Below are positions 2,103 through 46,660 of a DNA stretch of 64,000 bases, piece after piece. The DNA is taken from the NCBI GenBank assembly GCA_965208325.1, contig OZ242326.1, positions 2,432,001 through 2,496,000 of the forward strand. Reading direction: 5' to 3'. Source of the DNA: Candidatus Poribacteria bacterium. GTDB taxonomy: Bacteria; Poribacteria; WGA-4E; PCPOR2b. Position numbers and translations under genes: made by a program. Under the pieces are notes generated by a model. That model did not search any database, had not been told where the DNA came from, and saw only the letters and a program-made list of their open reading frames with translations. Positions within the stretch are counted from its first letter, which is position 1. Each line of letters opens with the position of its first letter.

Positions 2103-2876
2103 ATGAAGCTACGTAATACAGTCTCGATTTTGATGGTTTTAATTTTTATTGTGGTCGGATGTGCCGAGGTAGATGAAGAAGATCTTGATATTTTGCGCGA
2201 AGATTTCCAATCCGAAATTAACTCTTTAAGAGACGAGCGGCCCAATCTTGCAGGCGAAATTTCCACGTTGCGTGGCGAACAGTCCGACCTGCGGAGAGAC
2301 GTTGAAGGCGCTATTTTCAAATCGCGTATGGCTATTGAAGATCAGATTTTTACGTTCAGAGATGACGTTGACAATAGGTTTACGCCCTTAGAAGAATCGT
2401 TAGGTTCCGGCGGGCCTTTCGTTTCACGTGTGCCCGACCGTGTCACCATCACGGAAATTGCGGTTACGAACGAGTATGAATTCGGTCGGCTTGAAATTGA
2501 GGTTCACATTTATGACCGCGCAGATAACTTTATTGCGTGCTCCGGTCAAATTAACGGATTAGAACATGTAGACGGGTCGGACAGGCTCTACTCCGTGGGC
2601 GCCTTTTTCAATAAGTCCGACGGCGGTTATTTAACATACGACGATCTGCAGGATAAGGTGATATATCTTGTCGTTATTGAGGATGATTCTTATCCATGCC
2701 CAACTCCAGGGGGAGATTTCTTTCCTTTTTCGGACGACTTTGTCGGTAAGACCGAAACCTTTCCGGGTCGTGACATTGCCGGGACAAAAGCCATGCAGTT
2801 TGACGATGTAACCCAGTTAACCGTCACCGTATCGCTAACATGGAAACCCATAAATGATAACGGCGCAAAATTCTAA
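2103..2876 (+). CDS. Hypothetical lipoprotein with N-terminal coiled coil
   Basis: GGAGG RBS; lipobox VVGC; heptad-like segment. Confidence 0.65.
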   Translation: MKLRNTVSILMVLIFIVVGCAEVDEEDLDILREDFQSEINSLRDERPNLAGEISTLRGEQSDLRRDVEGAIFKSRMAIEDQIFTFRDDVDNRFTPLEESLGSGGPFVSRVPDRVTITEIAVTNEYEFGRLEIEVHIYDRADNFIACSGQINGLEHVDGSDRLYSVGAFFNKSDGGYLTYDDLQDKVIYLVVIEDDSYPCPTPGGDFFPFSDDFVGKTETFPGRDIAGTKAMQFDDVTQLTVTVSLTWKPINDNGAKF

Positions 2877-3024
2877 CAATAACAAAATCTCCTCATTAGA
2901 TGCCGCAAATGTTCGAGAATGTGTCCCAGATGTTAAAATAGTCCGTCGTCTGCGTTTAATCTGCGTTACAGTAGATATTTAAGGAAATTCGGAAATTTTT
3001 TCTGAAAAATTCATTAAAAAAAAC

Positions 3025-3054
3025 TTGACAAGAATATTCACGATGAATTATACT
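3025..3054 (+). promoter_or_regulatory. Sigma70-type promoter of the iron-uptake operon
   Basis: TTGACA (3025)-N18-TATACT (3049). Confidence 0.6.
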
Positions 3055-3096
3055 ATCGCGATTTTCCGAATTGTTCGTGGTTTTGTAAGTTTATTA

Positions 3097-30134: not shown

Positions 30135-30698
30135 ATGTCCGATAAATCAACTTGGTTGGAAGCCATGAAAGGCGAAGACATTCGAAAAAACATCGCCTAC
30201 AACATTCAGCGGTACGGCACCAAAAAAACCGTCGAAGCCATCTACGATGATCCGAAATTTGCGATTTGCAGAACGGAAAACGCCGCGCAGGATCGGCGCG
30301 CAATCCATAACGCAATCCAGGTCTGCAATCCCAAAAACCGAGACCGGTTCAACTCGCAAAAATATGGCGCCGCCGTCGCGGACGCCGTCAGAGATCAGCT
30401 TGAATTCACCGTCGCCGAACACCTGCCGGACATTGAACAGTCCCTCAAGCGCATGCGCGACGTTGACGACTCGGCTGTCGCCGCCGAAAATATCAATGAA
30501 CTTAAGCTGCTTAAATTAAGGTTGGAGATTCATGAGAAATATAGATCAGCCTCATTCTCACTCACAGGGCCTATTCGCGTCTACGAGCGCCAACCTGGCG
30601 ACTCGGGCGCCGGTGCAGCCCAATCTCAATTTAATTCGGGAGATTCGGGCGAAAGGCTACCTGAGCCCCCGAAATCGTTACGAAACGATTCGGAGTAA
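30135..30698 (+). CDS. Hypothetical helical protein in the terminase small-subunit position
   Basis: 187 aa, helical/coiled-coil composition, immediately upstream of TerL; function inferred from synteny only. Confidence 0.5.
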   Translation: MSDKSTWLEAMKGEDIRKNIAYNIQRYGTKKTVEAIYDDPKFAICRTENAAQDRRAIHNAIQVCNPKNRDRFNSQKYGAAVADAVRDQLEFTVAEHLPDIEQSLKRMRDVDDSAVAAENINELKLLKLRLEIHEKYRSASFSLTGPIRVYERQPGDSGAGAAQSQFNSGDSGERLPEPPKSLRNDSE

Positions 30699-32421
30699 AG
30701 GCTTGATTCATAACGAGGAAGAACGTAAGCTAGTCGTCCACCTGGCTTACGTCGATCCGGAGTTCTTTGTCGAACGCTATCTGCTCGCCCCGCACGACAT
30801 GTCGCCGTTGCAGCCGCACCATGTCGAACTCCTAAACCTCATCCCGTATAACGAAACCGGCGTCAAAGTCAACGTCCAAGCGCCGCGCGGCTCCGCGAAG
30901 ACAACCTGCTGCGCACTCTGGTACCCGCTCTGGAGAATCTGTTTCAAAGACTTTCAGCTCGCTGAAGGCGTCCCGGACGAAAAATTTATCCTCATAATCA
31001 GTCGAAACGAAGGAATGGCGCAAGGCATACTTCGTAACATCAAGGGACTAATGGATACACCGGGAATTGTCGAAGACTTTGGAATTCTGCGCGGTCCCGT
31101 ATGGAAAATGGATGAATGCGAGACCGCAAACGGCGTCACCCTCGTGCCCCGCGGACGTAACCAATCACCGCGCGGCTCGCTCGTACGCGGCAAACGCCCG
31201 TCCCTCCTCATCGTCGATGACCTTGAAGACACCGAACGCTGCATGAACCCCAAACTGCGTCAAAACGATTGGGATTGGCTGTTCTCGGATGTCATGTTTA
31301 CGTCCGACATCAGCGGGAACATCAACTGTATCTACGTCGACACCGTCAAACACCCGGAAAGCATTTCCATGCGGTTGACCAAGATGCCCGGATGGAAAAA
31401 TGTCCACTTCAAAGCCATTAAAGAACCCGAAGACCTCTACCACCCGACCCACGAACATCTCTGGAAAGAATGGGCAGGAATTTATGGAGACATGACGCTC
31501 AATGACGTAGAGCGAGACACGAAGGCTGACGAATTCTATAACGCCCACGCTGCAAACATGACCGCCGGCGTCATTGCGCTCTGGCCCGATCTGTTGCCGT
31601 TTCTCGAAGTCCGTAAGATGGTTGTTGAGCGAGGATATCACTTCTGCTTGAGGGAACTGCAAAATATCGCCCGCGACCCGAGTATGTCGATGTTTGATAT
31701 GGAAAACGCCATGACGTTCCGCATGCATGAGCGCGGCATGTTACGGAAGGACGGTCGTATCGTCGAATGGAGCCAAATCAGCGGCTTCACCACCTACCTC
31801 GACACCATGGGCGGGCGCGACGTACCCGATAATTCGTACGCTTGTGCCGTCGTCGTCGCCTGGGAGCCGTTACCGGGTGATAACAGGTCCAACTCCAACT
31901 CGATGGCGGGTATGAACGGGTATGTCCTGCTCTGCTGGCTGGATCGTACAGGGCTGACCGAACAGTTCGACTGCGCCATCCAGCTCCACCATCACGCACT
32001 AGCCATGCTGCACAAAGCCGTGCCGGAATCCAAGTTTTTCGTTGAATTGCCGCCTGACAAAGATTACACCATTCGCCGGGCTTACAATTCCGCATTCGAT
32101 TCCATGCGCAAAAAGCACCGGTTCGAAACACCGTTGGGTTTCCATTCCCAAACGCAGAAGAAGGAGGCGCGTATCGAAACGCTGGAACCCTCAATAAAAA
32201 ACGGCTGGCTCGCCTTCAACGAGGTCGGCCTGCCCGGCGAGTTCTGGAAACAGTTCCGCGAGTTCCCGACCGCCGATCACAACGACGCCCCGGACGCCGT
32301 GCAGGGCGCATGCCGCGCGCGTATCTACAAATCTGAACGAATCCGCAACGCTAGACGGTATCAAGACCCCGATCTCGAAGAATGGTACCGTGTAAACAGA
32401 TACAGAACCGTGCGCTTTTAA
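30532..32421 (+). CDS. terL: Phage terminase large subunit (alternative start TTG 30703)
   Basis: Walker A APRGSAKT, Walker B LLIVDDLE, RNase H-like YLDT...KEARI...FPTADHNDAPDA. Confidence 0.85.
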   Translation: MRNIDQPHSHSQGLFASTSANLATRAPVQPNLNLIREIRAKGYLSPRNRYETIRSKGLIHNEEERKLVVHLAYVDPEFFVERYLLAPHDMSPLQPHHVELLNLIPYNETGVKVNVQAPRGSAKTTCCALWYPLWRICFKDFQLAEGVPDEKFILIISRNEGMAQGILRNIKGLMDTPGIVEDFGILRGPVWKMDECETANGVTLVPRGRNQSPRGSLVRGKRPSLLIVDDLEDTERCMNPKLRQNDWDWLFSDVMFTSDISGNINCIYVDTVKHPESISMRLTKMPGWKNVHFKAIKEPEDLYHPTHEHLWKEWAGIYGDMTLNDVERDTKADEFYNAHAANMTAGVIALWPDLLPFLEVRKMVVERGYHFCLRELQNIARDPSMSMFDMENAMTFRMHERGMLRKDGRIVEWSQISGFTTYLDTMGGRDVPDNSYACAVVVAWEPLPGDNRSNSNSMAGMNGYVLLCWLDRTGLTEQFDCAIQLHHHALAMLHKAVPESKFFVELPPDKDYTIRRAYNSAFDSMRKKHRFETPLGFHSQTQKKEARIETLEPSIKNGWLAFNEVGLPGEFWKQFREFPTADHNDAPDAVQGACRARIYKSERIRNARRYQDPDLEEWYRVNRYRTVRF

Positions 32422-32489
32422 CCCCCAAAATTAAAATTTCTCCCCCTTACCAAGGGGGAGCTAGAGGGGGTTCGGTGAAACACAATAAT

Positions 32490-32559
32490 GTGGGAGAGGC
32501 TTCCCAGCCTCGATAATCAATCTGTCCATTCATCCTGTCGCAAGTATGAACCGACATGA
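32490..32559 (+). repeat. 70-bp dispersed repeat, copy 2
   Basis: Aligns with 5687-5756. Confidence 0.75.
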
Positions 32560-32661
32560 CCGTAGAGGAAATTCGAAACAACGCAAAAAATAATGCAACA
32601 CAAACCTTCGTTTTTACGGTTGTTTGGCGCCAACAATCACAAAATCCTCCCCCTTTACAAG

Positions 32662-34315
32662 CTTACTATTACCCACAAGTCATGTAATCTGGAAGGTGAG
32701 CGTTTTTTTGCGTCTCTTATTTGCCTAACATGATTGCGTGCAAGTTAGGCGGGTAACATATCGGAATCGAGAATCAGTATTTGCTTGGCGAAAGCAAATG
32801 TGATAAATTCGAGGGGCTAGGTTACCGAAAATCATAACGACCTCACTACGAAATTGGAGTCAACTATGCCTTCAAACCATGATGAGTTCAAGCTCCCTTG
32901 GAGTCGCCAAGAATTTGGGACGATTCATTTGGGAGATAAACGTCTCACTGAGCGACTGATTGATGTCGCCGAAGAATTATCAGGCTATCCGCAATCCTCC
33001 ATCAACGCTGCCTGTGGTGATTGGGCAGCCACAAAAGCAGCTTATCGTTTATTTGATAACCAGAAGGTCACAGCAGAAAAAATTCTAGTGCCTCACTTTC
33101 AACGTACTGTTGAACGAATGAGTGAACATCAACGTGTTTTTGCAGTACAGGATACGACCTATCTGAATTACACGCATCACCCGTTGACCGAGGGCTTAGG
33201 TCCAATTGGGACAAAGTCGCAGCAAATCTACGGGTTTGTCAAACACACGACGCTAGTGCTCACTGAGTCGGGATTGCCATTGGGGTGACTCACGGATAAA
33301 GTTTGGGTCCGGGAAGATTCCGAGCAAACCGTTCGCAAAACCAATCCGCCACTGACTGAAAAAGAGAGTTACAAATGGATTGAAGCGTTAAATGAAATCA
33401 AAGCGCAAACTCCAGCAGGGGTTGAGGTAATTTCCATCTGTGACCGTGAAGCCGATATTTATGAATTTTTTGTTGAATCACAAGACACACCCTTCGTGAT
33501 TCGAGCGGTTCAGAATCGAATTGTTGATGATGAGCTGGGTAAACTCAATCCCTTGGTCAAAAGTCAACCTGCTTCCGGTATGCTAGTTGTTAAGGTACCC
33601 GCTCGTGGGAACCAAGCATCTCGTGAGGCTACGGTCAGTGTTCATTTTACGGCAACGACGCTGGTTCCTCCCTATCGTTCGCAGGCGTCACAATCGCCAA
33701 ATCTACCTGCAATTGAGGTGAATGTCATCTGGGTAGCAGAGGTGAATCCACCCGCGAGGGCAACCCCGATTGAATGGCTGTTAATCACGAATGTAGAAGT
33801 GGCCAATTTTTCGGACGCTCTGGAACGAATACGTTGGTACAGTTTAAGATGGCAAATTGAAGTCTATTTCAAGGTCCTCAAATCCGGCACCAAAATCGAA
33901 TCGTGCCGTCTGCAAACTAAAAGTCGGCTTTTACGATACTTTGCGCTAACCAGTGTGATTGCGTGGCGGTTGTACTGGCTGACGATGATGAACCGCCATG
34001 CCCCGACTGCGGATTGTAGGTGTGTGCTAACATCTGATGAGTGGAAAGCGCTCTATTGTGTGTCTCATCGGCGTAGCACTTTGCCCAAGCAAATTCCTAC
34101 CGTTTCTGAGGTAGTGATTTGGATTGCCAAGCTCGGTGGTTTTTTAGCGCGCAGGTCCGACGGTGAGCCTGGGGTGACTGTTATCTGGCGAGGGTGGCAG
34201 CGGTTAAGAGATATTTCTGACACCTTTCGCCTTTTTCACAGTGTCGAATTGAACGATAGTTCTTAGCACTAACATAGAAAACCACTACCTCCGAAGACTT
34301 GTGGGTAATAGTAAG
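32662..34315 (+). mobile_element. IS4-family (IS50/Tn5-like) insertion sequence, 1654 bp
   Basis: Perfect 20-bp TIRs CTTACTATTACCCACAAGTC / GACTTGTGGGTAATAGTAAG; 9-bp target duplication CTTTACAAG (32653-32661, 34316-34324). Confidence 0.95.
32866..34266 (+). pseudogene. IS4/Tn5-type transposase with one in-frame TGA (33286-33288)
   Basis: LGDKRLTERL, VQDTTYLNY, read-through ICDREADIYEF, YSLRWQIEVYFKVLKSG, LGGFLARRSDGEPG, all in one frame. Confidence 0.9.
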
Positions 34316-34468
34316 CTTTACAAGGGGGAGTTAGAGGGGGTAGGGTTCAAGACTAAATCCCAGATCGAATCCTCAATTCAAGCCAGTATACTAGATGTCT
34401 CTCTGCCTTCACTCTTGACTTCTGTTTTGCCATAATGCAATAATCTAGTAAAACCAATCCGAAAAACA

Positions 34469-37400
34469 ATGCCAACCCTCAACCTAAAACCCACCCACAA
34501 ACCCATCAAAAACTACTACGCCGCGCTCGATCAATTCGACCGCCTCGGCGTTACGCACGAATCCGCCGTCCGCTCGGCATTTCAATCCCTGCTCCAGCAC
34601 TGTGCGCGACAGTTTAATTGCACGCTTGTGCCCGAACATTCGACAACCGGACGTAAAAACAATCGGATTATTGTTGACGGTGCGTTGATGGACGATTTTC
34701 GGTTGACGCACGGCTATTGGGAAGCGAAGGATGAAGATGACGACTTGCCTTCTGAAGTGGTACGCAAGTTTAAGAGGGGTTATCCCCGTGACAACATCCT
34801 TTTCCAAGAACCGTACCGTGCCATTCTCTGGCAGAACGATCGCCAGACGCTTGATGCGGATTTGAGAGATCCTCCGCAACTGATAAGCACGCTTGAAAGA
34901 TTCTTTTCCTACCGCCCGGAAGAGTACACCGAGTGGGAGGAGGCGGTCGCACATTTCAAAGTGGTCGTGCCCGCACTCGGACATGAATTGGCGAAACTCA
35001 TACAGACAAAACGCGATACCAATCGTCAATTCAAGATCGCCTTTGAGGAATTTTACGAGAACTGTCGTCTAGCCATCAATCCCAATCTCTCCGAAGCCGC
35101 AGTCGAGGAGATGTTGATTCAGCACCTCTTGACAGAACAAGTATTCCGCACTGTCTTCGGTAACCCCGACTTCACCCGCCGCAACGTCATCGCCATAGAA
35201 ATCGAGAAGGTGATAGACGCACTAACATCGCAGGCGTTCAGCCGTCAAGATTTTTTGAGTCCCCTTAACACTTTCTACGCGAAAATTGAACGCACTGCGG
35301 CCACCATTGATGATTTTTCGCAAAAACAAGGCTTTCTCAACACCGTCTACGAGCAGTTTTTTCAGGGCTTTTCGGTGAAAGTTGCCGACACGCACGGAAT
35401 TGTCTACACGCCGCAGCCGATCGTCGATTTCATGGTGAGAAGCGTTGAAGAGATTCTAAAGAATGAGTTCAATCGATCGCTCTCCGATACCGGCGTAAAT
35501 ATCATTGACCCGTTTGTGGGCACCGGCAATTTCATCGTACGAATCATGCGCGAGATTCGCAAGACTGCGCTGGCACTAAAATATGCGAAAGAATTACACT
35601 GCATCGAGGTAATGCTGCTGCCCTACTACATTGCGTCAATGAACATTGAGCACGAGTTTTACGACGCGACAGGGATGTATCGTCCCTACGAGCTCATTTG
35701 CTTCGCGGACACTTTCGAGTCGGTGGATGACCCAGAATACCATGAAACATCGCTGTTCGCGGAAAAAAATACCCGCCGCTTTGAAAATCAGAAAGAGACG
35801 CCGATGTTTGTGGTTATCGGCAATCCCCCCTATAACATCGGTCAGGTTAACGAACACGACAATAACAAAAACCGGAAATACCCAGCGATTGATTCGCGGA
35901 TCGCAAGCACGTATGTTAATGACTCCAAAGCGATGCTAAAAACTGCACTTTACGACCCGTATGTGAAGGCTATTTCTTGGGCATCTGAAAGGATTGAACA
36001 GGAGGGAGTTGTCGCCTTCGTAACCAACAACAGTTTTCTTGATGGTGTGGCATTTGACGGGATGCGAAAGCACCTAGCGGCTGATTTCGACGCAATTTAC
36101 ATCCTCGACTTAGGCGGGAATGCTCGGAAGGGACTGAAGGTCTCGGATACGAATGTGTTCGGGATTCGAGTCGGGATAAGCATCAGTTTTTTAATCAGAA
36201 GGCGTTATAATTCAAACTCCCTTGCCGAAATTTTCTACGCCCGAGTTGATGAATTTTGGAACAAGGCGGAGATTTTCCAGCATCTCAATTCAATAGTACA
36301 CTACAGAAACATCGAATGGAAGCCAATTACGCCCGACCATCGAAATTCATGGCTCACCGAAGGGCTCCACACTGAGTTTGAGAGCTATATTTCGATGGGG
36401 ACTAAGGCCACAAAAGCTTCGAAAGGTGAGTCAGTCGACGCGATTTTTAAGATTTATAGCGGCGGTGTTAAAACTAATCGAGATGCGTGGGTGTACAATT
36501 TCAACAAAAAAGCGCTCGCTGAAACCATGAACGGGTTGATCGGAACTTTCGCGGTGGAGGCTGATAGATGGAAACGTCGCAAGAATTGGGACGTCACAGT
36601 TGATGACTTCGTGATTTACGATAGCACGAAAATCAAGTGGAGTTCAAGCTTAAAAAAGAAACTCGTAGGCGGTCAAATTGCAGAATTTTCAAACGCAAAA
36701 ATTAGGCGATCTTTCTATCGCCCATTCGTGATAGCGAATCTCTACTTTGATCGTATGGCAATCGATCGTGTACTCGTATTTCCATCTATTTTCCCAACAC
36801 CGGAAACCGAAACCAACAACAGAGTGATTTGTGTTGCTGGCGTTGGCGATAGAAAAGGCTTCGGTTGCTTTATTACCAACGGGATACCTGCCTTTGATCT
36901 GGCCTTTGAAAAAGCCCAATGTTTCCCTTTCTACACCTACGACGAGGACGGCTCAAACCGACGCGAAAACATCACCGCTTGGGCATTGTCACAATTCAGA
37001 GAGCATTACCGAGACATCGACATCGGCAAATGGGACATCTTTCATTACGTCTACGGTCTGCTGCATCATCCAGAATATCGGGAGCGGTACGCCGCGAATC
37101 TCAAGCGCGACCTCCCGCGTCTCCCCTATGCGCCCGACTTCTGGGGTTTTGCCAAAGCAGGCAAACGCCTGGGGGAAATCCACGTCGGTTATGAAAACGT
37201 GGGTGAATATCCGCTCGACCCAATCGAAACGCCGGATACACAGCTTGATTGGCGCGTAGAGAAGATGAAATTATCCAAGGACAAAACCCAAATAAAATAC
37301 AACAACTTCCTTACCCTCGACGGGATTCCTGCAAAGGCGTTTAACTATCGCCTAGGAAACCGATCGGCGTTGGAATGGGTAATTGACCAGTACCGTGTCA

Positions 37401-37570
37401 AGACCGACAAACGCAGCGGCATCGTCAACGACCCCAACCGCGGCGACGACCCGCAATACATCGTCAAACTCATCGCCAAAGTAATCACCGTCAGCCTCGA
37501 AACCGTCGACATTGTGGAAAATTTACCCGACTTGGGAATCCAAGAATTCTCCCGTGACATAGGGGGCTAA
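34469..37570 (+). CDS. Single-polypeptide R-M enzyme: N-terminal nuclease-like domain + N6-adenine MTase + Type ISP (LlaBIII-like) C-terminal specificity domain, no helicase
   Basis: VDG...YWEAKD; GIVYTPQPIVDFMV; IIDPFVGTGNF (motif I); GNPPY (motif IV); YRPF, DIFHYVYGLLHHPEYRERYAANLKRDLPR. Confidence 0.9.
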   Translation: MPTLNLKPTHKPIKNYYAALDQFDRLGVTHESAVRSAFQSLLQHCARQFNCTLVPEHSTTGRKNNRIIVDGALMDDFRLTHGYWEAKDEDDDLPSEVVRKFKRGYPRDNILFQEPYRAILWQNDRQTLDADLRDPPQLISTLERFFSYRPEEYTEWEEAVAHFKVVVPALGHELAKLIQTKRDTNRQFKIAFEEFYENCRLAINPNLSEAAVEEMLIQHLLTEQVFRTVFGNPDFTRRNVIAIEIEKVIDALTSQAFSRQDFLSPLNTFYAKIERTAATIDDFSQKQGFLNTVYEQFFQGFSVKVADTHGIVYTPQPIVDFMVRSVEEILKNEFNRSLSDTGVNIIDPFVGTGNFIVRIMREIRKTALALKYAKELHCIEVMLLPYYIASMNIEHEFYDATGMYRPYELICFADTFESVDDPEYHETSLFAEKNTRRFENQKETPMFVVIGNPPYNIGQVNEHDNNKNRKYPAIDSRIASTYVNDSKAMLKTALYDPYVKAISWASERIEQEGVVAFVTNNSFLDGVAFDGMRKHLAADFDAIYILDLGGNARKGLKVSDTNVFGIRVGISISFLIRRRYNSNSLAEIFYARVDEFWNKAEIFQHLNSIVHYRNIEWKPITPDHRNSWLTEGLHTEFESYISMGTKATKASKGESVDAIFKIYSGGVKTNRDAWVYNFNKKALAETMNGLIGTFAVEADRWKRRKNWDVTVDDFVIYDSTKIKWSSSLKKKLVGGQIAEFSNAKIRRSFYRPFVIANLYFDRMAIDRVLVFPSIFPTPETETNNRVICVAGVGDRKGFGCFITNGIPAFDLAFEKAQCFPFYTYDEDGSNRRENITAWALSQFREHYRDIDIGKWDIFHYVYGLLHHPEYRERYAANLKRDLPRLPYAPDFWGFAKAGKRLGEIHVGYENVGEYPLDPIETPDTQLDWRVEKMKLSKDKTQIKYNNFLTLDGIPAKAFNYRLGNRSALEWVIDQYRVKTDKRSGIVNDPNRGDDPQYIVKLIAKVITVSLETVDIVENLPDLGIQEFSRDIGG
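37442..37537 (+). repeat. 96-bp direct repeat, copy 1 (3' end of the R-M gene)
   Basis: 92/96 identical to 43781-43876. Confidence 0.95.
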
Positions 37571-37659
37571 GGGCCCCTGTGGCGTCAGGGTTTGTCGGGT
37601 GTTCGGACATTACTCTATTACGCTTCTATTACGCTGAAACAACACACCTCTTTGTTTAT

Positions 37660-38751
37660 ATGCGCACTCAACAAATTTTCACACCTGAAGAACGAGATGA
37701 AAACGCTAAGCGAAAGCGCGAGTTGATTAAGCTTGTTGTTTCAGGAGAGGCTGTTCTCATCGTTGGCGCTGGAAGTAGTGTGCGTGTTGGATTTCCTGAT
37801 TGGCCGTGTCTACTAACAGAACTGGAAGATTTAGCTATAAAATGGGGCGATAGTTTTAAATTAGATGAAATTAAACGCGAAAACGACCCATTGACATATG
37901 TTGAGGACATTAAATCACACATTTACGATAAAACGAGCAACCTAGATAGATATTATAATTTGCTTTATGAGTTATTTGGTCGTCGTCTCGCTTCAGTTGA
38001 TGATTTCCACAAGATGCTAGTGTCATTACCCTTCAAAGGAATCCTAACCACAAATTACGATACTGTGCTTGAAGCAGCATTAACCGAGATAGATCCGTCG
38101 CCACTTGCTTCTGCAAATTCCTTAGTTATTGATGGAGGTTTTGCCGCACCAGTTCGTGAATTTCTCATGGCTATGGTTGATTCAAGTGTCCCTCGACGCA
38201 TTGCTCACTTGCACGGAAGGTATGACAATTGGGATAATATCATTCTGAGTCGCAAGGATTATCAAAGAGCTTATGAAGGGACTTCCGATTCGAAGCCTAC
38301 CGATACTAATCAGGCGCATACGGATTCTGCGTGGACGCTTCATCGAAAATTGTTATGGGCTCTTTTGGCGACTCGTCGCGTTGTTTTTATTGGTTTTAGC
38401 ATGTGCGATCCCTATTTCAACGGTATGTTAGATGTCGTTAGCAATGATTTATGGCGATGGGATAAAGCCACTCACTACGCAATAATGAGTATTTCCCCTG
38501 AAAAAACTGAGTATTCAAAAGCAAAGAAAATCAAACGTGATTACGGAATTGACACTGTCTTTTACGAGGATTTTGACAACTCCCACCAAGGTTTGGATGG
38601 TATCGTCACGGAAATAGCTGAACGATGCAATGTTGAGGAACAACCAGCGATTGCAACAACTGAGACCCAGTCGTCAAGAGATGAAGAAGTACTGAATTGG
38701 CTAGAACAAATGAATCAACGCGTGGAAAGGACAATTGACGGTGAGAATTAA
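37660..38751 (+). CDS. Stand-alone SIR2-like (SIR2_2) NADase-type effector
   Basis: LIVGAGSS, ILTTNYDTVLE, HLHG, VVFIGFSMCDPY. Confidence 0.88.
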   Translation: MRTQQIFTPEERDENAKRKRELIKLVVSGEAVLIVGAGSSVRVGFPDWPCLLTELEDLAIKWGDSFKLDEIKRENDPLTYVEDIKSHIYDKTSNLDRYYNLLYELFGRRLASVDDFHKMLVSLPFKGILTTNYDTVLEAALTEIDPSPLASANSLVIDGGFAAPVREFLMAMVDSSVPRRIAHLHGRYDNWDNIILSRKDYQRAYEGTSDSKPTDTNQAHTDSAWTLHRKLLWALLATRRVVFIGFSMCDPYFNGMLDVVSNDLWRWDKATHYAIMSISPEKTEYSKAKKIKRDYGIDTVFYEDFDNSHQGLDGIVTEIAERCNVEEQPAIATTETQSSRDEEVLNWLEQMNQRVERTIDGEN

Positions 38752-41700
38752 ACGAGAGAAACTACTCAAAGATCTTCGGAACTTTGCCTCTCAAGGAAAC
38801 GGAGTCATTATCGGCAGTCCTGGCGTCGGGAAAACATACTTGCTTAACGAACTCCGTCAGAATCTAATATCTGCTGGAATACCGCATCTCCTGCTACCGA
38901 TTGACCAACTCGGGGATGGCGCCGATAAAACTTTACGACAAGCATTGTCTTTCGAAGGCGATTTAATCGAAAAGTTGCTATCTGTTCCAGTTTCCGACAA
39001 AAAACCAATGTTACTATTTGATGCCTTCGATGCCGCTCGAAATGAACAGACACGCCAGCGATTTCTTCAACTGATTCGACGTGCAATTCAAGAACTCAGC
39101 GCTTGGAATGTCGTGGTCACAGTCCGTACCTATGACGCAAAAAAATCCCAAGAGTTATTAGACCTATTTGGCGGCACTCTTGATCCCGATTTACATCAAT
39201 ACCAAAATACAGCGATTTTGTGCCGACATTTCACTATTCCGCGGTTGAATGAGGCTGAGATTCAACAAGCCCTTAACCAGATGCAGTGTCCGGAATCAAT
39301 TTACAATTCTGGTTCTAAGGAATTTAAGCCGCTTTTTGCAATCCCATTTAACCTTTGGCTACTGGAGAAGATCCTAAAAACCTCACCGGATTTCGATTGT
39401 TTTAGTCATATTCGCTCTGAAGTCCAACTACTAAGCTTTTTTTGGCAACGGCGAATTGAGGGCGAAAACAATGGAGAGCATCGTCGATTTGTTCTTGAAC
39501 AAATTTCACACCGGATGGTTGAAGACAATTCATTGAGCGTCAGGCAGAACGACGTTTATAACGATCTGAACCTTGATGTTCCAGCGAGGCAAGGGGCATG
39601 GGACGATTTACTGAGTGATGAAATCTTGGCAAAGGTTTCTTTGACCGGGCAACGGATTGCTTTTTCTCACAACATCCTCTTCGACTACGCAATTAGCGTC
39701 CTACTCATTGATGACGAACCAAAACAACTTGAACGCTTTATCCTTGAAGATCCGTCGCGTCCGCTTTTTCTCCGACCAAGTCTCACCTACTTTTTCACCC
39801 GCCTCTGGCACGATGATCCAGAAACGTTTTGGAGAGCTTTCTGGCACATTTTCCCAAGCAATCAGTCCGTACATATACGCCTATTTGCCCGTTTGATTCC
39901 GACCAGCGTTATCGCAATTGAAGCCCACGTAATTAGCCAATTGACGCCGTTTTTCGATAAACTTAAGAGTGATAAAGAAATTGCCAATCAAGCAGTGATG
40001 TGGCTGTTGCAATCTCTCAATACGCTACAAATTGAACGCGACGAACTCTGGGTTGATTTTTTCGACCAAGTATCGGAAAATTTGCACAGCGACTTCGCGT
40101 GGGATTTGGCAACTATTACCTCTGCGGTGCTTGAGAGGTCAAAGACTGAAGACTCGGTTACCATAAACGCTTGCGGACGGATTGGACGCCGGTTACTCAA
40201 ATGGATTTGGCAAGCGCGAGAGACGAGCGAAAATGACTGGAATAACCGGCTCGGGAGTTCTTGGGCGGTTCCACTCGTCGCCAAGACTTTTGGAAATAAT
40301 CCTAAAGAATCGCGGGTACTGCTGGAAACAGTTCTCGACCTGACGCGGAAAGAAAATTTCACTATAAATTTCCTGATGCGGTTGACTAAACATGTTGACA
40401 GGATTTGGCTTCATGACCCTGAGTTTGTCACTCGAACTTATCTCGTGGTGTTTACTCACAACGAGACTAGCAATGAGATGACGCGCCTAGGCGGCGGTCC
40501 CATATTGCCTCTAGCAAGTACACGCCATCAAGACTACAGCAGTTGCCAGTATTTGTTGATACAGCATTTCCCGAACTTCCTGCGAGCTGCGCCATTATTC
40601 GCGACGCAAACAATGATTCCAATTTTGAACAACTTCATTTCTAAGACATATATCTTCAGTTTTGAAGACCGTGTGGACCGTGAAGATTCGCCCGAGAAGT
40701 TCAATTTTCGTGGAAAGCTTGCCCACTATGTACAGGACTACAGTTGCGAATGGGATAAAGTAGGATATCCTGATGAGCCAATCCAAATGGCAGATTCGTG
40801 GTTTGACTTCATCGCGGAATTGGCGGGGTTGACAGAAGCCCATTTGCTTCTTGATTCCCTACTAGACGTTTTCCGTGATGATGTCCGGGTTGCGTTCTTC
40901 TGGAAACGGCTATTGAAAACAGCGTCTCAATTTCCCGATGTCTTCGCGCCACGTCTGTTTGAACTGTGTATAGCGAAGCCGATACACATGGGTAACGATG
41001 TCCTAGACAATCTTTGTACGTTTTTAAAAGCTGCTGCGTGTCATTTCACGCGTGGGCAACGGCGTCAGATTGAAGAAAGCATTCTGGCGCTCCCCCGCGA
41101 AAGCGGTAACAACCGGCTATTTCTTCACCGTCGTAGAAATCAACTTCTAGAAAAAATCCCTTCGAATTTGTTAATTACGGAGGCTGCAAAGAAAATCCGC
41201 AAAGAATTCGAGCGTGAAAACGATGTCCCCGAAATTCCAACGTCTGCCGGTTTTGAATCTTCCCGTATACAAAATTCGTACGACCATCCTTTCTATCAGG
41301 GTGCTGACTCCGACGTACCTGAGAATCAAGAATTGAAAATCTTGGTTGATTCACTCACTCAATTCAGTTCAGATTGGCTAAATGGCAAACCGACGGAAGA
41401 CGCCGCTGAGTTGATTTTGCCAGAGTTAAGGGCCGCTTACGCCGCAATAAACGAAGACGAGGACATGGATGAGCAGGTATCAGATCGCCTCTGGTACAAA
41501 CTTACCGATTGCGCTGCAATCTTAAGTCGAGTAGTCGATAATACTGAAAGTCCCCTTTTCGATTTCTGCCGCCTAGTACTTTTACACGGCGCAACGCATA
41601 AACTTCCCGAACCGGAATTTGAACGCGATGCTCAATTAAGTTCTTCAAGCTATTCCCCATTTCCTCGACATGAAGCCGCCAAGGGATTACTAAGACTCGC

Positions 41701-42787
41701 GATTCGTCAATCTGATTCGGAAATGTTAAACGCGATCGAGGTTCTTGCACGCGATCCCGTACCGTCGGTTCGGATGGTGACAGCAACGGGTTTGTTCATG
41801 GTTTACGTCACTGCTCCAGAAAAATTCTGGCAGATCGTCGGGCAAAGAGCAGCTAATGAGAAAAATCTGGTCGTGCAAGGTCACATGTGTGCTACGTTAA
41901 CTCGGGTTGTCGGGCAAGGAATAGAGGAAGAAGAAAACACTGTAGGTGTTATGGACCAGATGCTGAAGTCGGCACTTGCACGCGCGCAGGCATTAAATCT
42001 GTCAAATTCGTTTGTCAATTTGTTGATGTGGCTGGCAATCGGTCGTAAAAATCCATGGGCATTGCAGACCATCGAACAAACCTTTTTCGAGGTACCAATC
42101 CAGTTCGCTCCATCCATGAATCATGCTGTTTCTTGGGCCATGCGAGAGTTTGTCGTCCCCAAGAATCTCGAATCAGATGACGCATGCGAAACGCTTCAAC
42201 GAGCTATTAAATGGTTAAAACAAGTAATTGACGTGGCTTCAGCCACGATTGAAGAATTGTCCGCGACCACCAACGGCGCTAGGACTGCAGAAACAACGAA
42301 ACAGTTACAGGACATCTACGGTGTGATTGACGAAGTTATCACGCGCCTATACTATACAACGGCCGCCCACGAAAAAGGTCAACCTGAGGAAATTGACGGT
42401 AAGCTACACTGTCAATTCTACGATCAAGTCAAGCCGTTAATGGAAGATGTCACTACTTTCGCATTAGGCGAACACGGCATCATGTTCGCTCCGACAGCCT
42501 ATCGTTTCACGCAACTCCTAACCTGTTTTATAAGCTGTAATCCCAAAGAGGTAATCCATCTCGCAGAGCGTGTTGCGAGGTCAAGCGAACCTTCCGGTTA
42601 TAATTTCGACTCCCTTGCAATCGAGGAAGTAGTCAAATTTGTCGAAATTGTCCTCGCGGACCACCGCAGCGAAGTGCGTGGTGGTGAAAGCTTGGAAAAC
42701 CTCCTGAAGCTGCTGGATATGTTTGCCAAAGCCGGTTGGTCAGATGCCCTAAGGCTCGTCTGGCGTCTTGATGAGATCTTTCGATAG
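38741..42787 (+). CDS. STAND NTPase, Avs2 (AVAST type II)-like, lacking an N-terminal effector
   Basis: Walker A GSPGVGKT at about residue 25, Walker B LLFDAFD, VVTVR, FSHNILFDY, long helical sensor region, C-terminus GYNFDSLAIEEVVKFVE..LADHR..AGWSDALRLVWRLDEIFR; GAAAGGA RBS before GTG 38741. Confidence 0.75.
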   Translation: MRIKREKLLKDLRNFASQGNGVIIGSPGVGKTYLLNELRQNLISAGIPHLLLPIDQLGDGADKTLRQALSFEGDLIEKLLSVPVSDKKPMLLFDAFDAARNEQTRQRFLQLIRRAIQELSAWNVVVTVRTYDAKKSQELLDLFGGTLDPDLHQYQNTAILCRHFTIPRLNEAEIQQALNQMQCPESIYNSGSKEFKPLFAIPFNLWLLEKILKTSPDFDCFSHIRSEVQLLSFFWQRRIEGENNGEHRRFVLEQISHRMVEDNSLSVRQNDVYNDLNLDVPARQGAWDDLLSDEILAKVSLTGQRIAFSHNILFDYAISVLLIDDEPKQLERFILEDPSRPLFLRPSLTYFFTRLWHDDPETFWRAFWHIFPSNQSVHIRLFARLIPTSVIAIEAHVISQLTPFFDKLKSDKEIANQAVMWLLQSLNTLQIERDELWVDFFDQVSENLHSDFAWDLATITSAVLERSKTEDSVTINACGRIGRRLLKWIWQARETSENDWNNRLGSSWAVPLVAKTFGNNPKESRVLLETVLDLTRKENFTINFLMRLTKHVDRIWLHDPEFVTRTYLVVFTHNETSNEMTRLGGGPILPLASTRHQDYSSCQYLLIQHFPNFLRAAPLFATQTMIPILNNFISKTYIFSFEDRVDREDSPEKFNFRGKLAHYVQDYSCEWDKVGYPDEPIQMADSWFDFIAELAGLTEAHLLLDSLLDVFRDDVRVAFFWKRLLKTASQFPDVFAPRLFELCIAKPIHMGNDVLDNLCTFLKAAACHFTRGQRRQIEESILALPRESGNNRLFLHRRRNQLLEKIPSNLLITEAAKKIRKEFERENDVPEIPTSAGFESSRIQNSYDHPFYQGADSDVPENQELKILVDSLTQFSSDWLNGKPTEDAAELILPELRAAYAAINEDEDMDEQVSDRLWYKLTDCAAILSRVVDNTESPLFDFCRLVLLHGATHKLPEPEFERDAQLSSSSYSPFPRHEAAKGLLRLAIRQSDSEMLNAIEVLARDPVPSVRMVTATGLFMVYVTAPEKFWQIVGQRAANEKNLVVQGHMCATLTRVVGQGIEEEENTVGVMDQMLKSALARAQALNLSNSFVNLLMWLAIGRKNPWALQTIEQTFFEVPIQFAPSMNHAVSWAMREFVVPKNLESDDACETLQRAIKWLKQVIDVASATIEELSATTNGARTAETTKQLQDIYGVIDEVITRLYYTTAAHEKGQPEEIDGKLHCQFYDQVKPLMEDVTTFALGEHGIMFAPTAYRFTQLLTCFISCNPKEVIHLAERVARSSEPSGYNFDSLAIEEVVKFVEIVLADHRSEVRGGESLENLLKLLDMFAKAGWSDALRLVWRLDEIFR

Positions 42788-43191
42788 GATTTTTCGTGCA
42801 CACGCCTGGTGCTCGTATTATTGACGGAACACTCAAATAGATCTCGAAGTCATGTAGGATTTCCGTATTCATTCCGCAAAACCCATAACGGTGAGTTTGG
42901 AGACAGCGGAAATCGTTGAAAAGTTGGCTGTTTGAATGGCAGGTCGGGAATGTGCAGGAAAATGAAAAGAGGATAATTGTAGTGTGAGACCCCGCGATAC
43001 GCGATAAAAGATTGTAAACGACCAAATGCTTTAGAAATGTGCTCGGACTAAGTTATTTTGGAAACAATGTGAACCGTATCATTGTTGATCTCAACGCCGA
43101 GTTGGATAGATGGTACAAACCGAATCCAACAGGACAAGGCTGTCACGCTTTTGAGCGAGAAGCCGGTTACAGCTAAGGAAGGCATCGAATC

Positions 43192-43788
43192 GTGAAGCTA
43201 TGCTCATACATAGTAGCAACAGACTACGGATTCGCTCCAAATCCGTTCTACGGCTTCTGTACACTAGCAACTTGCAAATCTAGAATTCGAAAGAGCGCTA
43301 AGATTGGCGACTGGGTTATTGGTACTGGCTCAAAGGCTATTCAACGAGATGGTAATCTTGTCTATGTCATGCGTGTAACGGAGACAATTACGTTTGATGA
43401 ATACTGGAAAGACCCTCGTTTTAGTAATAAACGTCCTGACATGCACGCCAATGACAAGAAAGCCATCTTCGGCGACAATATCTATCACAAAGACCCTGAT
43501 TCAAATGAGTGGTGTCAGATAGATACCTATCACAGCCGTCGCGATAGAACGCCGTGTTATTCGTATATTTGCGATGACACGGAGGTAGACCAAGTCTTAA
43601 TCAGTGACGATTTCATTTACTGGGGAGGAACCGGACCCAAACTCCCTAGGTTTTGTGGGGTCAATTTTTGCTGGGATCGGCAGGGGCATAAGTGCAATTT
43701 TCCACAAGAAGCTGTTGCAGAATTAATCGCGTGGATTCGTAGTCTCAAAGATAGGGGCTACTGCGGTCGTCCTTCAGACTGGCGATGA
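43192..43788 (+). CDS. Nmad2 (nucleotide-modification-associated domain 2) protein
   Basis: SYIVATDYGFAPNPFYGFCTLATCKSRIRKSAKIGDWVIGTG...GDNIYH...VLISDDFIYWG. Confidence 0.8.
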   Translation: MKLCSYIVATDYGFAPNPFYGFCTLATCKSRIRKSAKIGDWVIGTGSKAIQRDGNLVYVMRVTETITFDEYWKDPRFSNKRPDMHANDKKAIFGDNIYHKDPDSNEWCQIDTYHSRRDRTPCYSYICDDTEVDQVLISDDFIYWGGTGPKLPRFCGVNFCWDRQGHKCNFPQEAVAELIAWIRSLKDRGYCGRPSDWR

Positions 43789-43879
43789 CCCGCAATACAT
43801 CGTCAAACTCATCGCCAAAGTAATCACCGTCAGCCTCGAAACCGTCGACATTGTGGAAAATTTGCCGGAATTGGGATAA
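43781..43879 (+). repeat. 96-bp direct repeat, copy 2: orphan R-M C-terminus with its own stop codon
   Basis: Encodes GDDPQYIVKLIAKVITVSLETVDIVENLPELG*. Confidence 0.95.
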
Positions 43880-43904
43880 AAATGGATATGGAGGAAATTC
43901 AACG

Positions 43905-44750
43905 ATGTCAAATTCTATCGTTAACTTGGGAAAGCTAGCAAAGCCTTTTGACACCCTGGTCAAGAAAATTGCGAAAGGCATCGGTGGCACGGTTGCTCCT
44001 TGGCAGATCAAAAGAGTTGCTAGGGCAGAAGCTGAGGCTGCAAGAATTAATGCGCAATCTGAGATTGAAGTGACCGACTTACATCAAAGAGCCGCGCAGC
44101 GTCGAATTGAAGAAGATGCACGTCAACAAAAGAATATGGAAGATATTATCACTAAAGCAGCACCACATTTGAAAGAAGATGCAAAACCCGACGCCATGGC
44201 TGACGACTGGATCTCCAACTTCTTTGATAAATCTCGAATCGTATCCGACAGTGAAATGCAGAGTTTGTGGTCGCGCGTACTGGCAGGTGAAGCGAACACT
44301 CCTGGTACCTACTCCAAGCGTACCGTTAATCTTATTGCGGAGTTTGACAGGCGCGATGCTGAACTTTTCACTAAGCTTTGTGGATTTGGCTGGATTATAG
44401 GAAATGTAATACCTTTGGTGTTTGATGTGCAGGCGGAAATTTACACTAAACAAGGAATAACCTTCGATAGCGTGAGTCATCTTGAAAGTTTTGGACTTGT
44501 TCAATCTGCAGGAGTTACTGGTTTCAGCCGAGTCAATTTGCGCAAAAGACTTATTGTGTACTACTATAGTAAGCCATTGCTACTGGAATTCCCCAAGGAT
44601 ACTGGTAACGAGCTAAAGATTGGAAAGATACGTCTCACTAAAATCGGACAGGAACTTGCGCCAATATGCGGAAGTAAGCCAGTAGAAGGTTTCTACGAAT
44701 ACGTCAAGAACCGGTGGAAGCAATTCATTCCCAAGGGTGAAAAAACATAA
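43905..44750 (+). CDS. DUF2806-family protein
   Basis: GGAGG RBS; RQQKNMEDI, DDWISNFFDKSRIVSDSEMQSLWSRVLAGEANTPGTYSKRT. Confidence 0.8.
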   Translation: MSNSIVNLGKLAKPFDTLVKKIAKGIGGTVAPWQIKRVARAEAEAARINAQSEIEVTDLHQRAAQRRIEEDARQQKNMEDIITKAAPHLKEDAKPDAMADDWISNFFDKSRIVSDSEMQSLWSRVLAGEANTPGTYSKRTVNLIAEFDRRDAELFTKLCGFGWIIGNVIPLVFDVQAEIYTKQGITFDSVSHLESFGLVQSAGVTGFSRVNLRKRLIVYYYSKPLLLEFPKDTGNELKIGKIRLTKIGQELAPICGSKPVEGFYEYVKNRWKQFIPKGEKT

Positions 44751-45106
44751 TAGCAGTAGTAAGTCCTTAGTAGGTTGGGCAGAGTGAACACATTCGTAGC
44801 GCTTGGAAAGACTGCACAAGGTAGCAGGTGAAAACCACCGTTTTCTTTCTATAGCCCATTAGCGAAACCCAACGCTTTTGGAATTACCTTCAACTTGCGT
44901 AACGCATTGTTACGTTGGCTATGCGAGATAAAAATAATTCCTCTAGCAAACGACGAATAGGCGATTGGACACCGTAGGTGCGAATTGGTCTCTGCCAACT
45001 CATTTACAGGAGTTCAGAAGCTGAAATTGCAGCCACAGACGTATCGGTAGACTTAACAGAAGGTGACTTGCACCTCGCGTAGCAAGACATAGAAAAGGAG
45101 AAACTC

Positions 45107-46054
45107 ATGCGCCAGATGACATGGATAGGCAGACCCGTAAACGAAAACTCTGACCACTTCGAAAAAATACGCGGTCTTATTCCGACCTTCAGCAGAGAGG
45201 GTTTTAAAATCGATGGCCAAGAAAACGAGCATCTCGACATGATTGTCAAGCTGCCTCGATACCCAAACGATACAAAAATTCCAGTGGCAACGGTATCGAA
45301 ATCCTACTCGCTCATTCAACACCGTGAAATACTCAACGAAATAGAAAGCGCGTTGAAAACTATGGGTTACCCAATCGAAAATTTTGAAACAGACCTACAA
45401 TTGACAATCTACGGAGAACGCATGTGGTTGAGGATTACTTTCCAAGAGGAGCACTCGTTTGATCCCGGAGATGGGTACCCGCTAACACTACAGCTTCACG
45501 TTATTAACTCGGTTGACGGGAGCACTCCACTAACCTACGAAATGTGCTGGTTCAGACTCATCTGTGAAAACGGTCTTATGCAGTCCAACAGCGCAAGTGC
45601 CCGAATAAGGCACACTGCCTCACTAGATAAAACAAAATTCGTTGAACTCCTCGATTCCAGCATTAACGAGATGCGCGCTGAAGCCGATGCATACATGACT
45701 TGGTACGAAATACCGTTAAACCCGGGCACACAGATATTGGAAGACTGGATTGACTCGACGGTGAATAATAAGTGGGGCTTCCGGCTCGCAGCGCGTAGCT
45801 ATCACATAATTAAAACCGGAATGGACGGTAGAGTAGACAAAGTCGACGCGACTTCGGCGGAAAAACGTAAAGCCCCGCACACAATCAAAGTTTCGTCCGA
45901 ACAATCGGTGCCGGGGGCAATACCTGCTGAGAATGTCTATGATGTTGCAAACGCACTATCCTGGATTGCGTCACACCGCAATTCACTCCAAACTCGATAC
46001 AATTACATGAAGGCGATGCCTGAGCTACTTGCCGATCTTAACCAGAGACTCTAA
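45107..46054 (+). CDS. DUF932-family phage/plasmid-associated protein
   Basis: VSKSYSLIQH, GERM, INSVDGST, FRLICENGL; AAGGAG RBS. Confidence 0.75.
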   Translation: MRQMTWIGRPVNENSDHFEKIRGLIPTFSREGFKIDGQENEHLDMIVKLPRYPNDTKIPVATVSKSYSLIQHREILNEIESALKTMGYPIENFETDLQLTIYGERMWLRITFQEEHSFDPGDGYPLTLQLHVINSVDGSTPLTYEMCWFRLICENGLMQSNSASARIRHTASLDKTKFVELLDSSINEMRAEADAYMTWYEIPLNPGTQILEDWIDSTVNNKWGFRLAARSYHIIKTGMDGRVDKVDATSAEKRKAPHTIKVSSEQSVPGAIPAENVYDVANALSWIASHRNSLQTRYNYMKAMPELLADLNQRL

Positions 46055-46139
46055 GGCAATTAAGACCCATTTGAAAACTTTCAACCTATTGAAGTAGACA
46101 ACCACGTACACATATGAAATTGCAATGTGAGTTGTTTTT

Positions 46140-46579
46140 GTAGGTTGGGTAGAGCGGATATGGTGAAACATGCGTGGTATTTGGTAAGCATTACATACGT
46201 TGAAATTGTTTGGCACATGTAATAGTGTAGCAAAACCCAACGTTTTTGAAACGTTCGCATAGCCGACCGGCAGACGCCAACACCGGAACACTAGGAACAA
46301 GGAACTACAATGAGCGTAATAGGAATTCGGAGCGGTGTATAGTAATCGGAATTTGTTAGCGTTCCCGGAGGGTATAAAAGCGTTGGGTTTCGTTCTGGGC
46401 GTATTGACAACAGCATTGTTAGAAATTCGTAACGGTCAATTGCTATCAGAACCGTTTTGGAATTACCCGCTCTACCCAACCTACAGAAACTGCGTGAATC
46501 AAATTTGGAGGTCGTTAGGCTTCCAGAATGAAACGTAAAACTGTACATCATTTGGTGAAATCCGCTCAGCCCAACCTAC
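46140..46579. repeat. Cluster of GTAGGTTGGG/CCCAACCTAC REP-like elements
   Basis: Ends at 46140, 46475, 46570. Confidence 0.65.
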
Positions 46580-46660
46580 TAGAGCTGTCCAGTTCACATA
46601 ACGCAAAAACGAAATTACAATATGAATTCATGTCAACCCACGATTGATCGACACACGCCA

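Follow-up and report, generated by a model that had tools for sequence, protein, structure and literature searches.

Integrase-free capture of cargo genes at the 3′ end of a Type IIL restriction-modification gene in Candidatus Poribacteria

How do genes come to lie between a restriction-modification (R-M) gene and a second copy of that gene's own 3′ end? The question is raised by a 64,000-nt stretch of the genome of a sponge symbiont, Candidatus Poribacteria (G000:C1:2432001-2496000, in a one-contig genome), hereafter the window, whose own numbering is used below. In the window an R-M gene is followed by genes for a SIR2-like protein, a STAND NTPase and Nmad2, then by a displaced copy of the R-M gene end and by a DUF2806 gene. 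An earlier note on this DNA had proposed that cargo is captured at the constant 3′ end of the R-M gene. Comparison with related genomes bore this out: empty, alternative-cargo and stacked alleles were found, and the locus represents a real, recurrent, integrase-free capture of cargo at the 3′ end of a Type IIL gene present in multiple copies. In what follows G numbers denote genomes and L numbers loci; a copy of the R-M gene end is called a tail, and an orphan where it stands apart from its gene.

The repeated end of the R-M gene

The locus consists of the following features.

34469..37570, + strand: R-M gene (aligned to PDB 7lo5 over residues 15-1020, E 6e-203; Pfam N6_Mtase, ISP_coupler and Type_ISP_C)
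37442..37537, + strand: tail copy 1, coding; its core, 37448-37524, is identical to copy 2
37660..38751, + strand: SIR2-like protein, cargo 1 (Pfam SIR2_2, E 6e-21)
38735..42787, + strand: STAND/NACHT NTPase, cargo 1 (PADLOC candidate, PDC-M54A-like, E 6e-189)
about 42870..42935, + strand: tail copy 3, a short orphan R-M end in decay (shares 13/17 aa with the R-M tail)
43192..43788, + strand: Nmad2 gene, cargo 2 (Pfam Nmad2, E 2e-66)
43789..43879, + strand: tail copy 2 proper, 88 nt plus TAA, the displaced end of a DUF2806-leading R-M allele
43905..44750, + strand: DUF2806 gene (Pfam DUF2806, E 3e-40)

A repeat search found exactly two copies of the 96-nt sequence that the earlier note had reported near the R-M end. 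The copies (37442-37537 and 43781-43876) are spaced by 6,339 nt and identical at 92 of 96 positions; blastn returned the pair with E 6e-37 within the genome and no further copies at that level. All four mismatches fall on third codon positions of the R-M frame (GAC/GAT, TTA/TTG, CCC/CCG and GAC/GAA, the last exchanging D and E). Copy 2 ends, as had been read, in a stop codon of its own, TAA at 43877-43879. The ribosome-binding leader of the DUF2806 gene, a family assignment confirmed by Pfam, follows.

The proposal that the two copies exactly bracket SIR2-STAND-Nmad2 stood as to gene content, which Pfam confirmed, but not as to the number of copies: nhmmer (E 1.8e-4 genome-wide) and a covariance model (E 0.007) place a third tail at about 42870-42935. 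It is the scar of an older displacement, and the locus is therefore a stack.

The upstream boundary of copy 2 also needed revision. Positions 43781-43788 are the last 8 nt of Nmad2, of which 7 agree with the R-M tail. The G044 homologue of Nmad2 ends with matching codons (DWP-stop versus DWR-stop), and 28 of the 38 homologues listed end 0-5 residues after the same W; because these agree, the 8 nt are the natural end of Nmad2 and the duplicated part measures 88 nt. To judge by the sequences, the 7/8 match is a junction microhomology. The first mismatch of the repeat is supplied by the TGA stop codon of Nmad2, so that all four third-position differences are where they had been placed but the first, the T of that stop, is not a difference between alleles.

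Within the tail, the 77-nt core (37448-37524) is identical at 77/77 positions between the copies and is followed by 3 mismatches in 13. Among 67 other R-M genes the best match to the core was 72/77. The core would thus be a recent duplication, a conversion tract, or derived from a near-identical allele or a donor of the same species. Beyond it the copies part: in the alignment copy 1 from position 37525 on resembles alleles that do not lead to DUF2806, whereas the end of copy 2 resembles DUF2806-led alleles. We infer that the end of copy 1 after 37525 is the donor's. The earlier view of two coding alleles instead of a duplication therefore holds for the three 3′ mismatches and the sequence that follows them, but is contradicted by the identical core.

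The empty allele and the original gene order

The empty allele that had been predicted, R-M joined to DUF2806, is present at 4 loci in 3 congeners (G003, G007 and G019). In each congener (3/3) one of these loci has upstream the same gene as the window:

30532..32421, + strand: terminase-large-subunit-like (TerL-like) gene (PHROG 38, E 9e-53), upstream of R-M in G003, G007 and G019

The direct repeat that flanks the insert is single in the empty allele, the comparison being between congeneric species, not conspecific strains. Copy 2 and the next 60 nt, including the DUF2806 leader, align with the R-M-DUF2806 alleles of the congeners, and the 150 nt after copy 2 find their best matches in L036, L038 and L035. 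Because copy 2 aligns with DUF2806-led alleles and copy 1 with others, copy 2 is the old R-M end and SIR2-STAND-Nmad2 the addition.

These comparisons establish that the ancestral order was TerL-like gene, R-M, DUF2806, that SIR2-STAND-(old tail)-Nmad2 was inserted between the R-M end and DUF2806, and that the old R-M end travels with DUF2806. DUF2806 is the original neighbour of the R-M gene here, pushed downstream. The downstream flank of the TerL-R-M-DUF2806 loci of the congeners maps elsewhere in G000; since in the three congeners this block adjoins a gpsA-like locus, the block has moved in G000. About 25 kb of the window (21775-46661) are absent from G007 and G019, whose flanks join directly.

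Contig support for the locus

Misassembly had been named as what could undo the proposal. Four public contig sets were compared over 32000-47000; these hold contigs only, from which rare circles or empty alleles would be lost, and the runs X1 and X2, with their small word shares, were used solely where their contigs give cover. One could imagine that the assembly fused two strains at the R-M tail: the bacterium has not been cultured, and the identical core is precisely where the short-read contigs of X6 break, so that they cannot phase it. Such breaks follow from the fact that short-word assembly must break at identical sequence. Against a chimera, one 1,794-nt contig of X9, a different sample from X6, covers 42218-44011 with zero differences and bridges Nmad2, copy 2 and DUF2806. 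One contig of X2, from another study and about 90% identical, runs from 37411 via SIR2, STAND and the old tail into Nmad2, DUF2806 being uncovered by the X2 contigs. The depth of X6 (17.1-18.5) is even on R-M, cargo and DUF2806, and the same architecture recurs in other genomes. Misassembly of the locus is unlikely, and a strain chimera in particular is improbable in the extreme.

The R-M enzyme

DrdV-like Type IIL enzymes combine a nuclease, a helical connector, an adenine methyltransferase and a recognition domain in one chain, and lack an ATPase; they methylate one strand and cleave at a fixed distance. The hallmark of Type ISP enzymes is a RecA-like ATPase/helicase domain between nuclease and methyltransferase. 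The R-M protein of the window aligned to DrdV (PDB 7lo5) over residues 15-1020 of its 1033 amino acids (E 6e-203). Pfam matched N6_Mtase, ISP_coupler and Type_ISP_C and no helicase, and LlaGI and LlaBIII aligned to the protein from residue 183 only, with neither room nor match for an ATPase. By these alignments the enzyme classifies as a DrdV-like Type IIL enzyme. Type ISP identity, one side of the Type ISP/IIG label given in the earlier note, was ruled out by the missing ATPase/helicase domain. The catalytic-type motifs appear intact by eye in the DrdV alignment. DrdV as presented in the available account (PDB 7lo5/7lvv; bioRxiv 10.1101/2021.01.06.425610) has the same length and domain order and aligns end to end; unlike DrdV, the window enzyme belongs to a family with up to 18 (G074), about 25 (G083) or about 28 (G151) copies per genome.

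The tail of this gene occurs in 133/151 genomes of the order, often in many copies. The expansion of DrdV-like genes in sponge symbionts is extreme: a Caldilineaceae genome gave 31 tail matches and G083 gave 25, while G066 and G074 have 11-14 of the genes. Transposases were not found regularly attached to the expanded genes.

The earlier note had suggested that events at the tail may also swap specificity domains. The variable recognition region lies at least about 550-750 nt upstream of the tail, and a crossover in the last 32 codons cannot alter it. R-M alleles are mosaic; specificity swapping probably does occur, by crossovers flanking the recognition region and not by the tail event.

Orphan tails in related genomes

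Eighty loci were taken from near-complete genomes of the family, excluding loci on draft contigs and three G040 genes. With the window the set comprised 75 loci with an R-M gene and 6 with a tail only. A full-length nucleotide profile (3,071 positions) detected 19 fragments of 40-230 nt in the flanks of 7 of the 75 R-M loci. All 19 derive from model positions 2839-3069 and all lie downstream, the upstream flanks scanned having reached only about 1.2-1.6 kb. Genes stand between the R-M gene and the orphan at five of the seven loci (the window, G015, G044 and two in G074). L096 and L098, both in G052, are cargo-free tandem arrays of 3-5 tail-plus-repeat units directly behind the R-M gene.

Often it is not the resident gene that the 150 nt behind an orphan match; the match is to the end of an R-M-cargo allele that is intact at another locus. 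For the G015 orphans this is L088/L078 and L070/L113, for L089 it is L047/L099/L043. Such matches indicate that a tail goes with the cargo that follows it. In sequence the freshest orphans resemble the resident R-M gene most, and match it better at the 5′ than at the 3′ side. The L316 orphan is 92% identical to the resident gene versus at most 82% to any other locus compared, and that of L312 contains a 51-nt perfect block. In G044 the stop of a TIR gene is fused to a tail at the same position as the joint of the window, the stop codon being made at the joint.

Further orphans were found in other Poribacteria families and in the Caldilineaceae genome G151. In the Latescibacteria genomes G152 and G153 orphans of 83 and 230 nt, preceded by different cargo, lead into the same start of a C5-methyltransferase gene. 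The alternative-cargo alleles and stacked orphan tails foreseen by the earlier note exist. Among 17 non-Poribacteria loci there was one clear orphan and one weak one, and a tblastn search of plasmids for orphans beyond the sponge symbionts (250 places in 243 records), which is weak for short fragments, gave no sign that they are frequent there.

Several tail-like structures were seen beside these. At L045:4700-6170 (G015) two cargo genes are each preceded by a copy of a unit of about 250 nt in which an orphan tail is fused to a HicB-like stub. L108 and L117 have similar stubs close to R-M ends or tails; in all three places the HicB label is our presumption. Inspection by eye of L041, L043, L047, L066 and L099 showed 2-3 different R-M end words of 15-30 nt between the stop codon and the cargo start, which suggests repeated, very short displacements. 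A second family has left a similar scar, an orphan Type ISP-like tail by a different R-M gene of 975-988 aa and a TPR gene (G000:C1:1704842-1708909; L319 in G007; L173 and L174), with the order of TPR gene and tail differing between G000 and G007.

Integrative elements use gene 3′ ends as attachment sites, and a site-specific recombinase acting in trans could use the R-M tail in this way. Some orphan starts do recur: model position 2973 in the window, G044 and G108, about 2837-2846 in four genomes and about 3003-3009 in several; and the genome encodes 4 tyrosine recombinases. These are all at least 128 kb away, serine recombinases not having been searched genome-wide, and no recombinase was found in the cargo or among 14 flanking open reading frames (ORFs) scanned with Pfam, 21 more ORFs of the window being unscanned. 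The absence of a visible integrase near the locus, as first reported, was confirmed for the ORFs scanned. The breakpoints are variable, with starts spread from about model position 2837 to 3025, i.e. over about 190 nt, and the recurrent ones are explicable by shared microhomologies or by where the profile alignment starts. The tail forms no hairpin (folding z -1.3 to +0.5), and extra synonymous-site conservation in it was not significant (0.39 vs 0.46, p 0.12). A trans-acting recombinase is largely disfavoured and very unlikely. An integron or site-specific integrative element was rejected on the lack of an adjacent recombinase among the ORFs scanned, the spread of starts and the lack of an attC-like structure.

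Equal-length models of the head, middle and tail of the R-M gene were run on the same 29 genomes. Stray tails numbered 21 fragments at 12 loci, leaving uncounted the low-scoring matches to Type ISP-like paralogues and to a second family. Stray heads occurred at 3 loci, with up to 2 more on draft contigs, and stray middles gave 3 weak matches. There is a trend towards an excess of tails over heads among these related, non-independent genomes. In G000 itself a head-only remnant of a DrdV-like gene (134 nt; G000:C1:2916995-2917129, minus strand) stands behind a 259-aa HTH-like ORF.

Stray gene ends could also be left by tandem duplication and decay. Recombination over the whole 3-kb gene would put R-M-cargo 1 before R-M-DUF2806, and the second R-M body would then be deleted down to its tail. 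Tandem full-length genes exist, with runs of 4 and 3 intact genes in G083 (L168, L169) and pairs in G094 (L170, L158) and G151. There are also solo tails where relatives have the full gene (L089, L101, L118, L082), head-plus-tail remnants (L161, L163, L167, L171) and heads. However, downstream of the 75 family loci full genes in tandem were absent and remnants did not exceed about 230 nt. The perfect 77-nt core implies a recent event with little time for trimming, and the step from identical to divergent sequence lies within the tail. We regard this route as distinctly doubtful.

Retroposition of tail-plus-cargo transcripts, prompted by the variable 5′ ends, was considered and dropped, most orphans examined lying behind R-M genes or where relatives have one; no search for reverse transcriptases was made.

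Proposed mechanism

The reading that we favour, and hold to be moderately probable, is an integrase-free displacement of the 3′ end, brought about by homologous pairing of tails and a microhomology joint. The incoming DNA, or DNA from a sister locus, would be another copy of the multi-copy R-M gene with its own cargo. This donor would pair with the resident R-M gene in the conserved last 100-230 nt. A crossover inside or just after the 77-nt core would give the resident gene the last codons of the donor together with the donor's cargo. The far end of the donor would be joined, through the 8-nt microhomology at the Nmad2 stop region, to a point about 90 nt upstream in the resident tail. As a result the core would be present twice, and the old end and old cargo would be shunted downstream. 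Repetition of the process would build stacks of the form R-M, cargo, tail, cargo, tail, cargo. That joints fall at stop codons and that tails are retained may be due to selection that keeps the upstream gene intact and preserves the leader of the downstream gene, which lies in the tail end.

The greatest similarity of the freshest orphans to their resident gene, and their better match on the 5′ than on the 3′ side, fit tail pairing, crossover and an upstream microhomology joint. The TIR stop made at the joint in G044 is as expected from selection for intact cargo.

Direct repeats recombine and loop out the DNA between them. By analogy, host recombination between the two tail copies of the window should be able to excise 6,339 nt as a loop and recreate the empty allele. 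A second possible route runs through circles, whose excision the earlier note had proposed and which figure in the Rhs model of Jackson et al. 2009 (PMC2935791). Recombination between an R-M tail and an orphan tail could free a tail-plus-cargo circle, reintegrating by one crossover into the tail of any related R-M copy, in the same or another cell. The joint at the Nmad2 end would then be inherited from the donor. We consider such reusable circles possible but unlikely. The anatomy of the locus is that of a single-crossover integration, which would regenerate an empty allele; variable fragment lengths are expected from circles, according to the account available of rhs loci (PMC2935791). The L312 orphan has mismatches on both sides of its perfect block, the G052 arrays of tail-plus-repeat units show repeated tail recombination, and TIR cargo 61% identical stands behind R-M genes in one Poribacteria and one Latescibacteria genome. 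A contig of X2 (record 11) may carry the same Nmad2/tail joint with other DNA behind it.

On the other side, a circle would need a donor identical over 77 nt, and the best of the 67 other R-M genes reached 72/77. Tails after the cargo were found at 0/15 R-M-linked SIR2-STAND loci. One cargo-plus-joint at two loci with different surroundings was not found; two copies in G152 form one duplicated block, 97% identical, and are therefore uninformative. The X6 depth is equal on cargo and flanks. The four contig sets, which drop rare forms, showed neither a circle joint nor a depth excess, 15 of 79 X6 joints having been viewed, and no empty-allele joint was among the joints viewed.

Several observations count against displacement by tail pairing and a microhomology joint, our preferred reading. 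No intermediate or event has been observed, and the argument compares different species, not strains. The excess of tails over heads (12 versus 3-5 loci) is modest and comes from related genomes, and 68 of the 75 loci have no orphan. Older orphans (L045, L093, L116, L112) are no more similar to the resident R-M gene than to others. On the 5′ side of its perfect block the L312 orphan differs at 4 positions, a pattern that a circular donor explains equally well or better. Record 11 of X2, about 90% identical, matches 14 nt past the Nmad2 stop and no further, its continuation being unreadable; this is a weak hint that the Nmad2/tail joint is older than the join to DUF2806. Finally, the full tandem R-M genes in other families offer another route to tails.

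Cargo genes

Homologues of SIR2-STAND occur in 50/151 genomes of the order. At 15 of 21 loci, chosen from the best matches, the pair lies directly behind an R-M gene. At none of these 15 is STAND followed by a tail; L150 does carry a solo tail there, with no R-M gene in the region. SIR2-STAND as a tail-bounded mobile cassette in general was rejected on the 0/15 count. As SIR2-STAND is a standing companion of R-M genes, the donor was probably another R-M allele. SIR2 is a separate ORF before STAND in relatives too. The same STAND NTPase occurs either with a separate SIR2 gene or with a fused N-terminal domain of about 200 aa (L137, L143, L145, L146, L154, L156), which would be effector swapping in a PDC-M54A-like system.

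Nmad2 was found in 7 of the 150 other genomes of the order. Metagenomes yielded no close relatives, the best of 54 loci reaching 60% identity.

From the loci of the survey 57 first-downstream proteins were picked, and 49 were scanned after exclusion of 8 duplicates or broken frames. Defence-type models were matched by 14 of the 49: ApeA/PDC-S58 in 6, PDC-S60 in 3, methyltransferases in 2, and one each of a pPIWI nuclease, TIR and a kinase. Three further matches were to housekeeping genes. Some proteins recur directly behind R-M genes (575-622 aa in L041, L047, L079 and L099; 190-199 aa in L042, L077, L083 and L112; 300 aa in L045 and L070), with no PADLOC match and, in the members scanned, no Pfam match. 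These and DUF2806 are candidate defence genes.

Other features of the region

The TerL-like gene and a 187-aa ORF upstream of it (30135-32421) occur in several copies per congener genome, and no other phage genes were noticed beside them. The two are possibly a minimal selfish element or a domesticated packaging module. An insertion sequence of the IS4/Tn5 type (32641-34341) has 35-nt inverted ends and a split transposase frame; the genome contains 4 further copies of >99% identity. A short open stretch before Nmad2 (43018-43176) resembles by eye the C-terminus of the TIR gene that precedes Nmad2 in relatives and is probably its remnant. At 46134-46491 lies a repeated non-coding element of about 360 nt with terminal inverted repeats and many copies in the genome and in congeners; it also stands 3′ of DUF2806 in G019.

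Comparison with known systems

In rhs loci, as outlined by Jackson et al. 2009 (PMC2935791), C-terminal displacement leaves behind an intact gene a series of detached pieces of its conserved region, which vary in length. Such arrays at toxin loci are attributed, in the available descriptions, to circles or to homology-facilitated illegitimate recombination (PMC2935791; PMC5361080). Rhs arrays as outlined there and the R-M locus share fragments that, with the gene behind them, are attached to an intact gene in relatives; neither involves an integrase, and homology limits who can insert. In rhs the toxin tip of the same protein is swapped, whereas at the R-M locus the part of the protein that determines its function stays, only the last few codons change and a downstream operon of unrelated defence genes is exchanged. 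Only 2-13 terminal residues differ here, and the cargo consists of separate genes. The R-M locus works like an Rhs-type array but is not a member, because exchange of a toxin tip with an immunity gene is absent.

Displacement of effector-immunity genes of the type VI secretion system, as far as set out in Kirchberger et al. 2017 (PMC5361080), likewise combines one homologous anchor with a single illegitimate joint; arrays form as old genes move downstream, and 3′ remnants of the displaced gene can stay. Unlike that system, the R-M anchor is multi-copy and becomes duplicated, the joint being upstream of the crossover, and the cargo does not encode immunity proteins but is of the anti-phage type. 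At R-M loci, insertion with long target duplication (Furuta et al. 2010, PMC2853133, in the account available) also produces a direct repeat that flanks the insert and is single in the empty allele. The repeats described there measure 45-49 bp and longer, with variable lengths, and no integrase is involved. In that case the R-M genes are the insert, whereas here the R-M end is the target, the insert has no R-M gene and allele differences are present at the ends of the repeat. A literature search, outside whose coverage most subscription journals and supplements lay, found no description of orphan R-M tails with stacked cargo.

Implications

The locus bears on the open question of how defence islands grow without an integrase or transposase. 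The order of events can be read from the scars, each orphan tail dating and delimiting one capture. A simple way to look for new defence genes is to examine what sits behind a DrdV-like gene end or an orphan tail. To the toxin loci for which C-terminal displacement has been described, the locus adds a restriction gene whose protein is left unchanged.

A wider idea, which we put forward tentatively and think rather unlikely, is that the constant DrdV-like end is a shared docking sequence, served by host recombination only, across sponge symbionts of several phyla. Tail-plus-cargo units, possibly as circles, would pass from locus to locus and among Poribacteria, Latescibacteria and Chloroflexi, and the defence content would be toggled by looping out between tails. 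If this is true, every copy of the R-M gene would be an entry site, and a restriction gene would have given rise to an integron-like system without an integrase.

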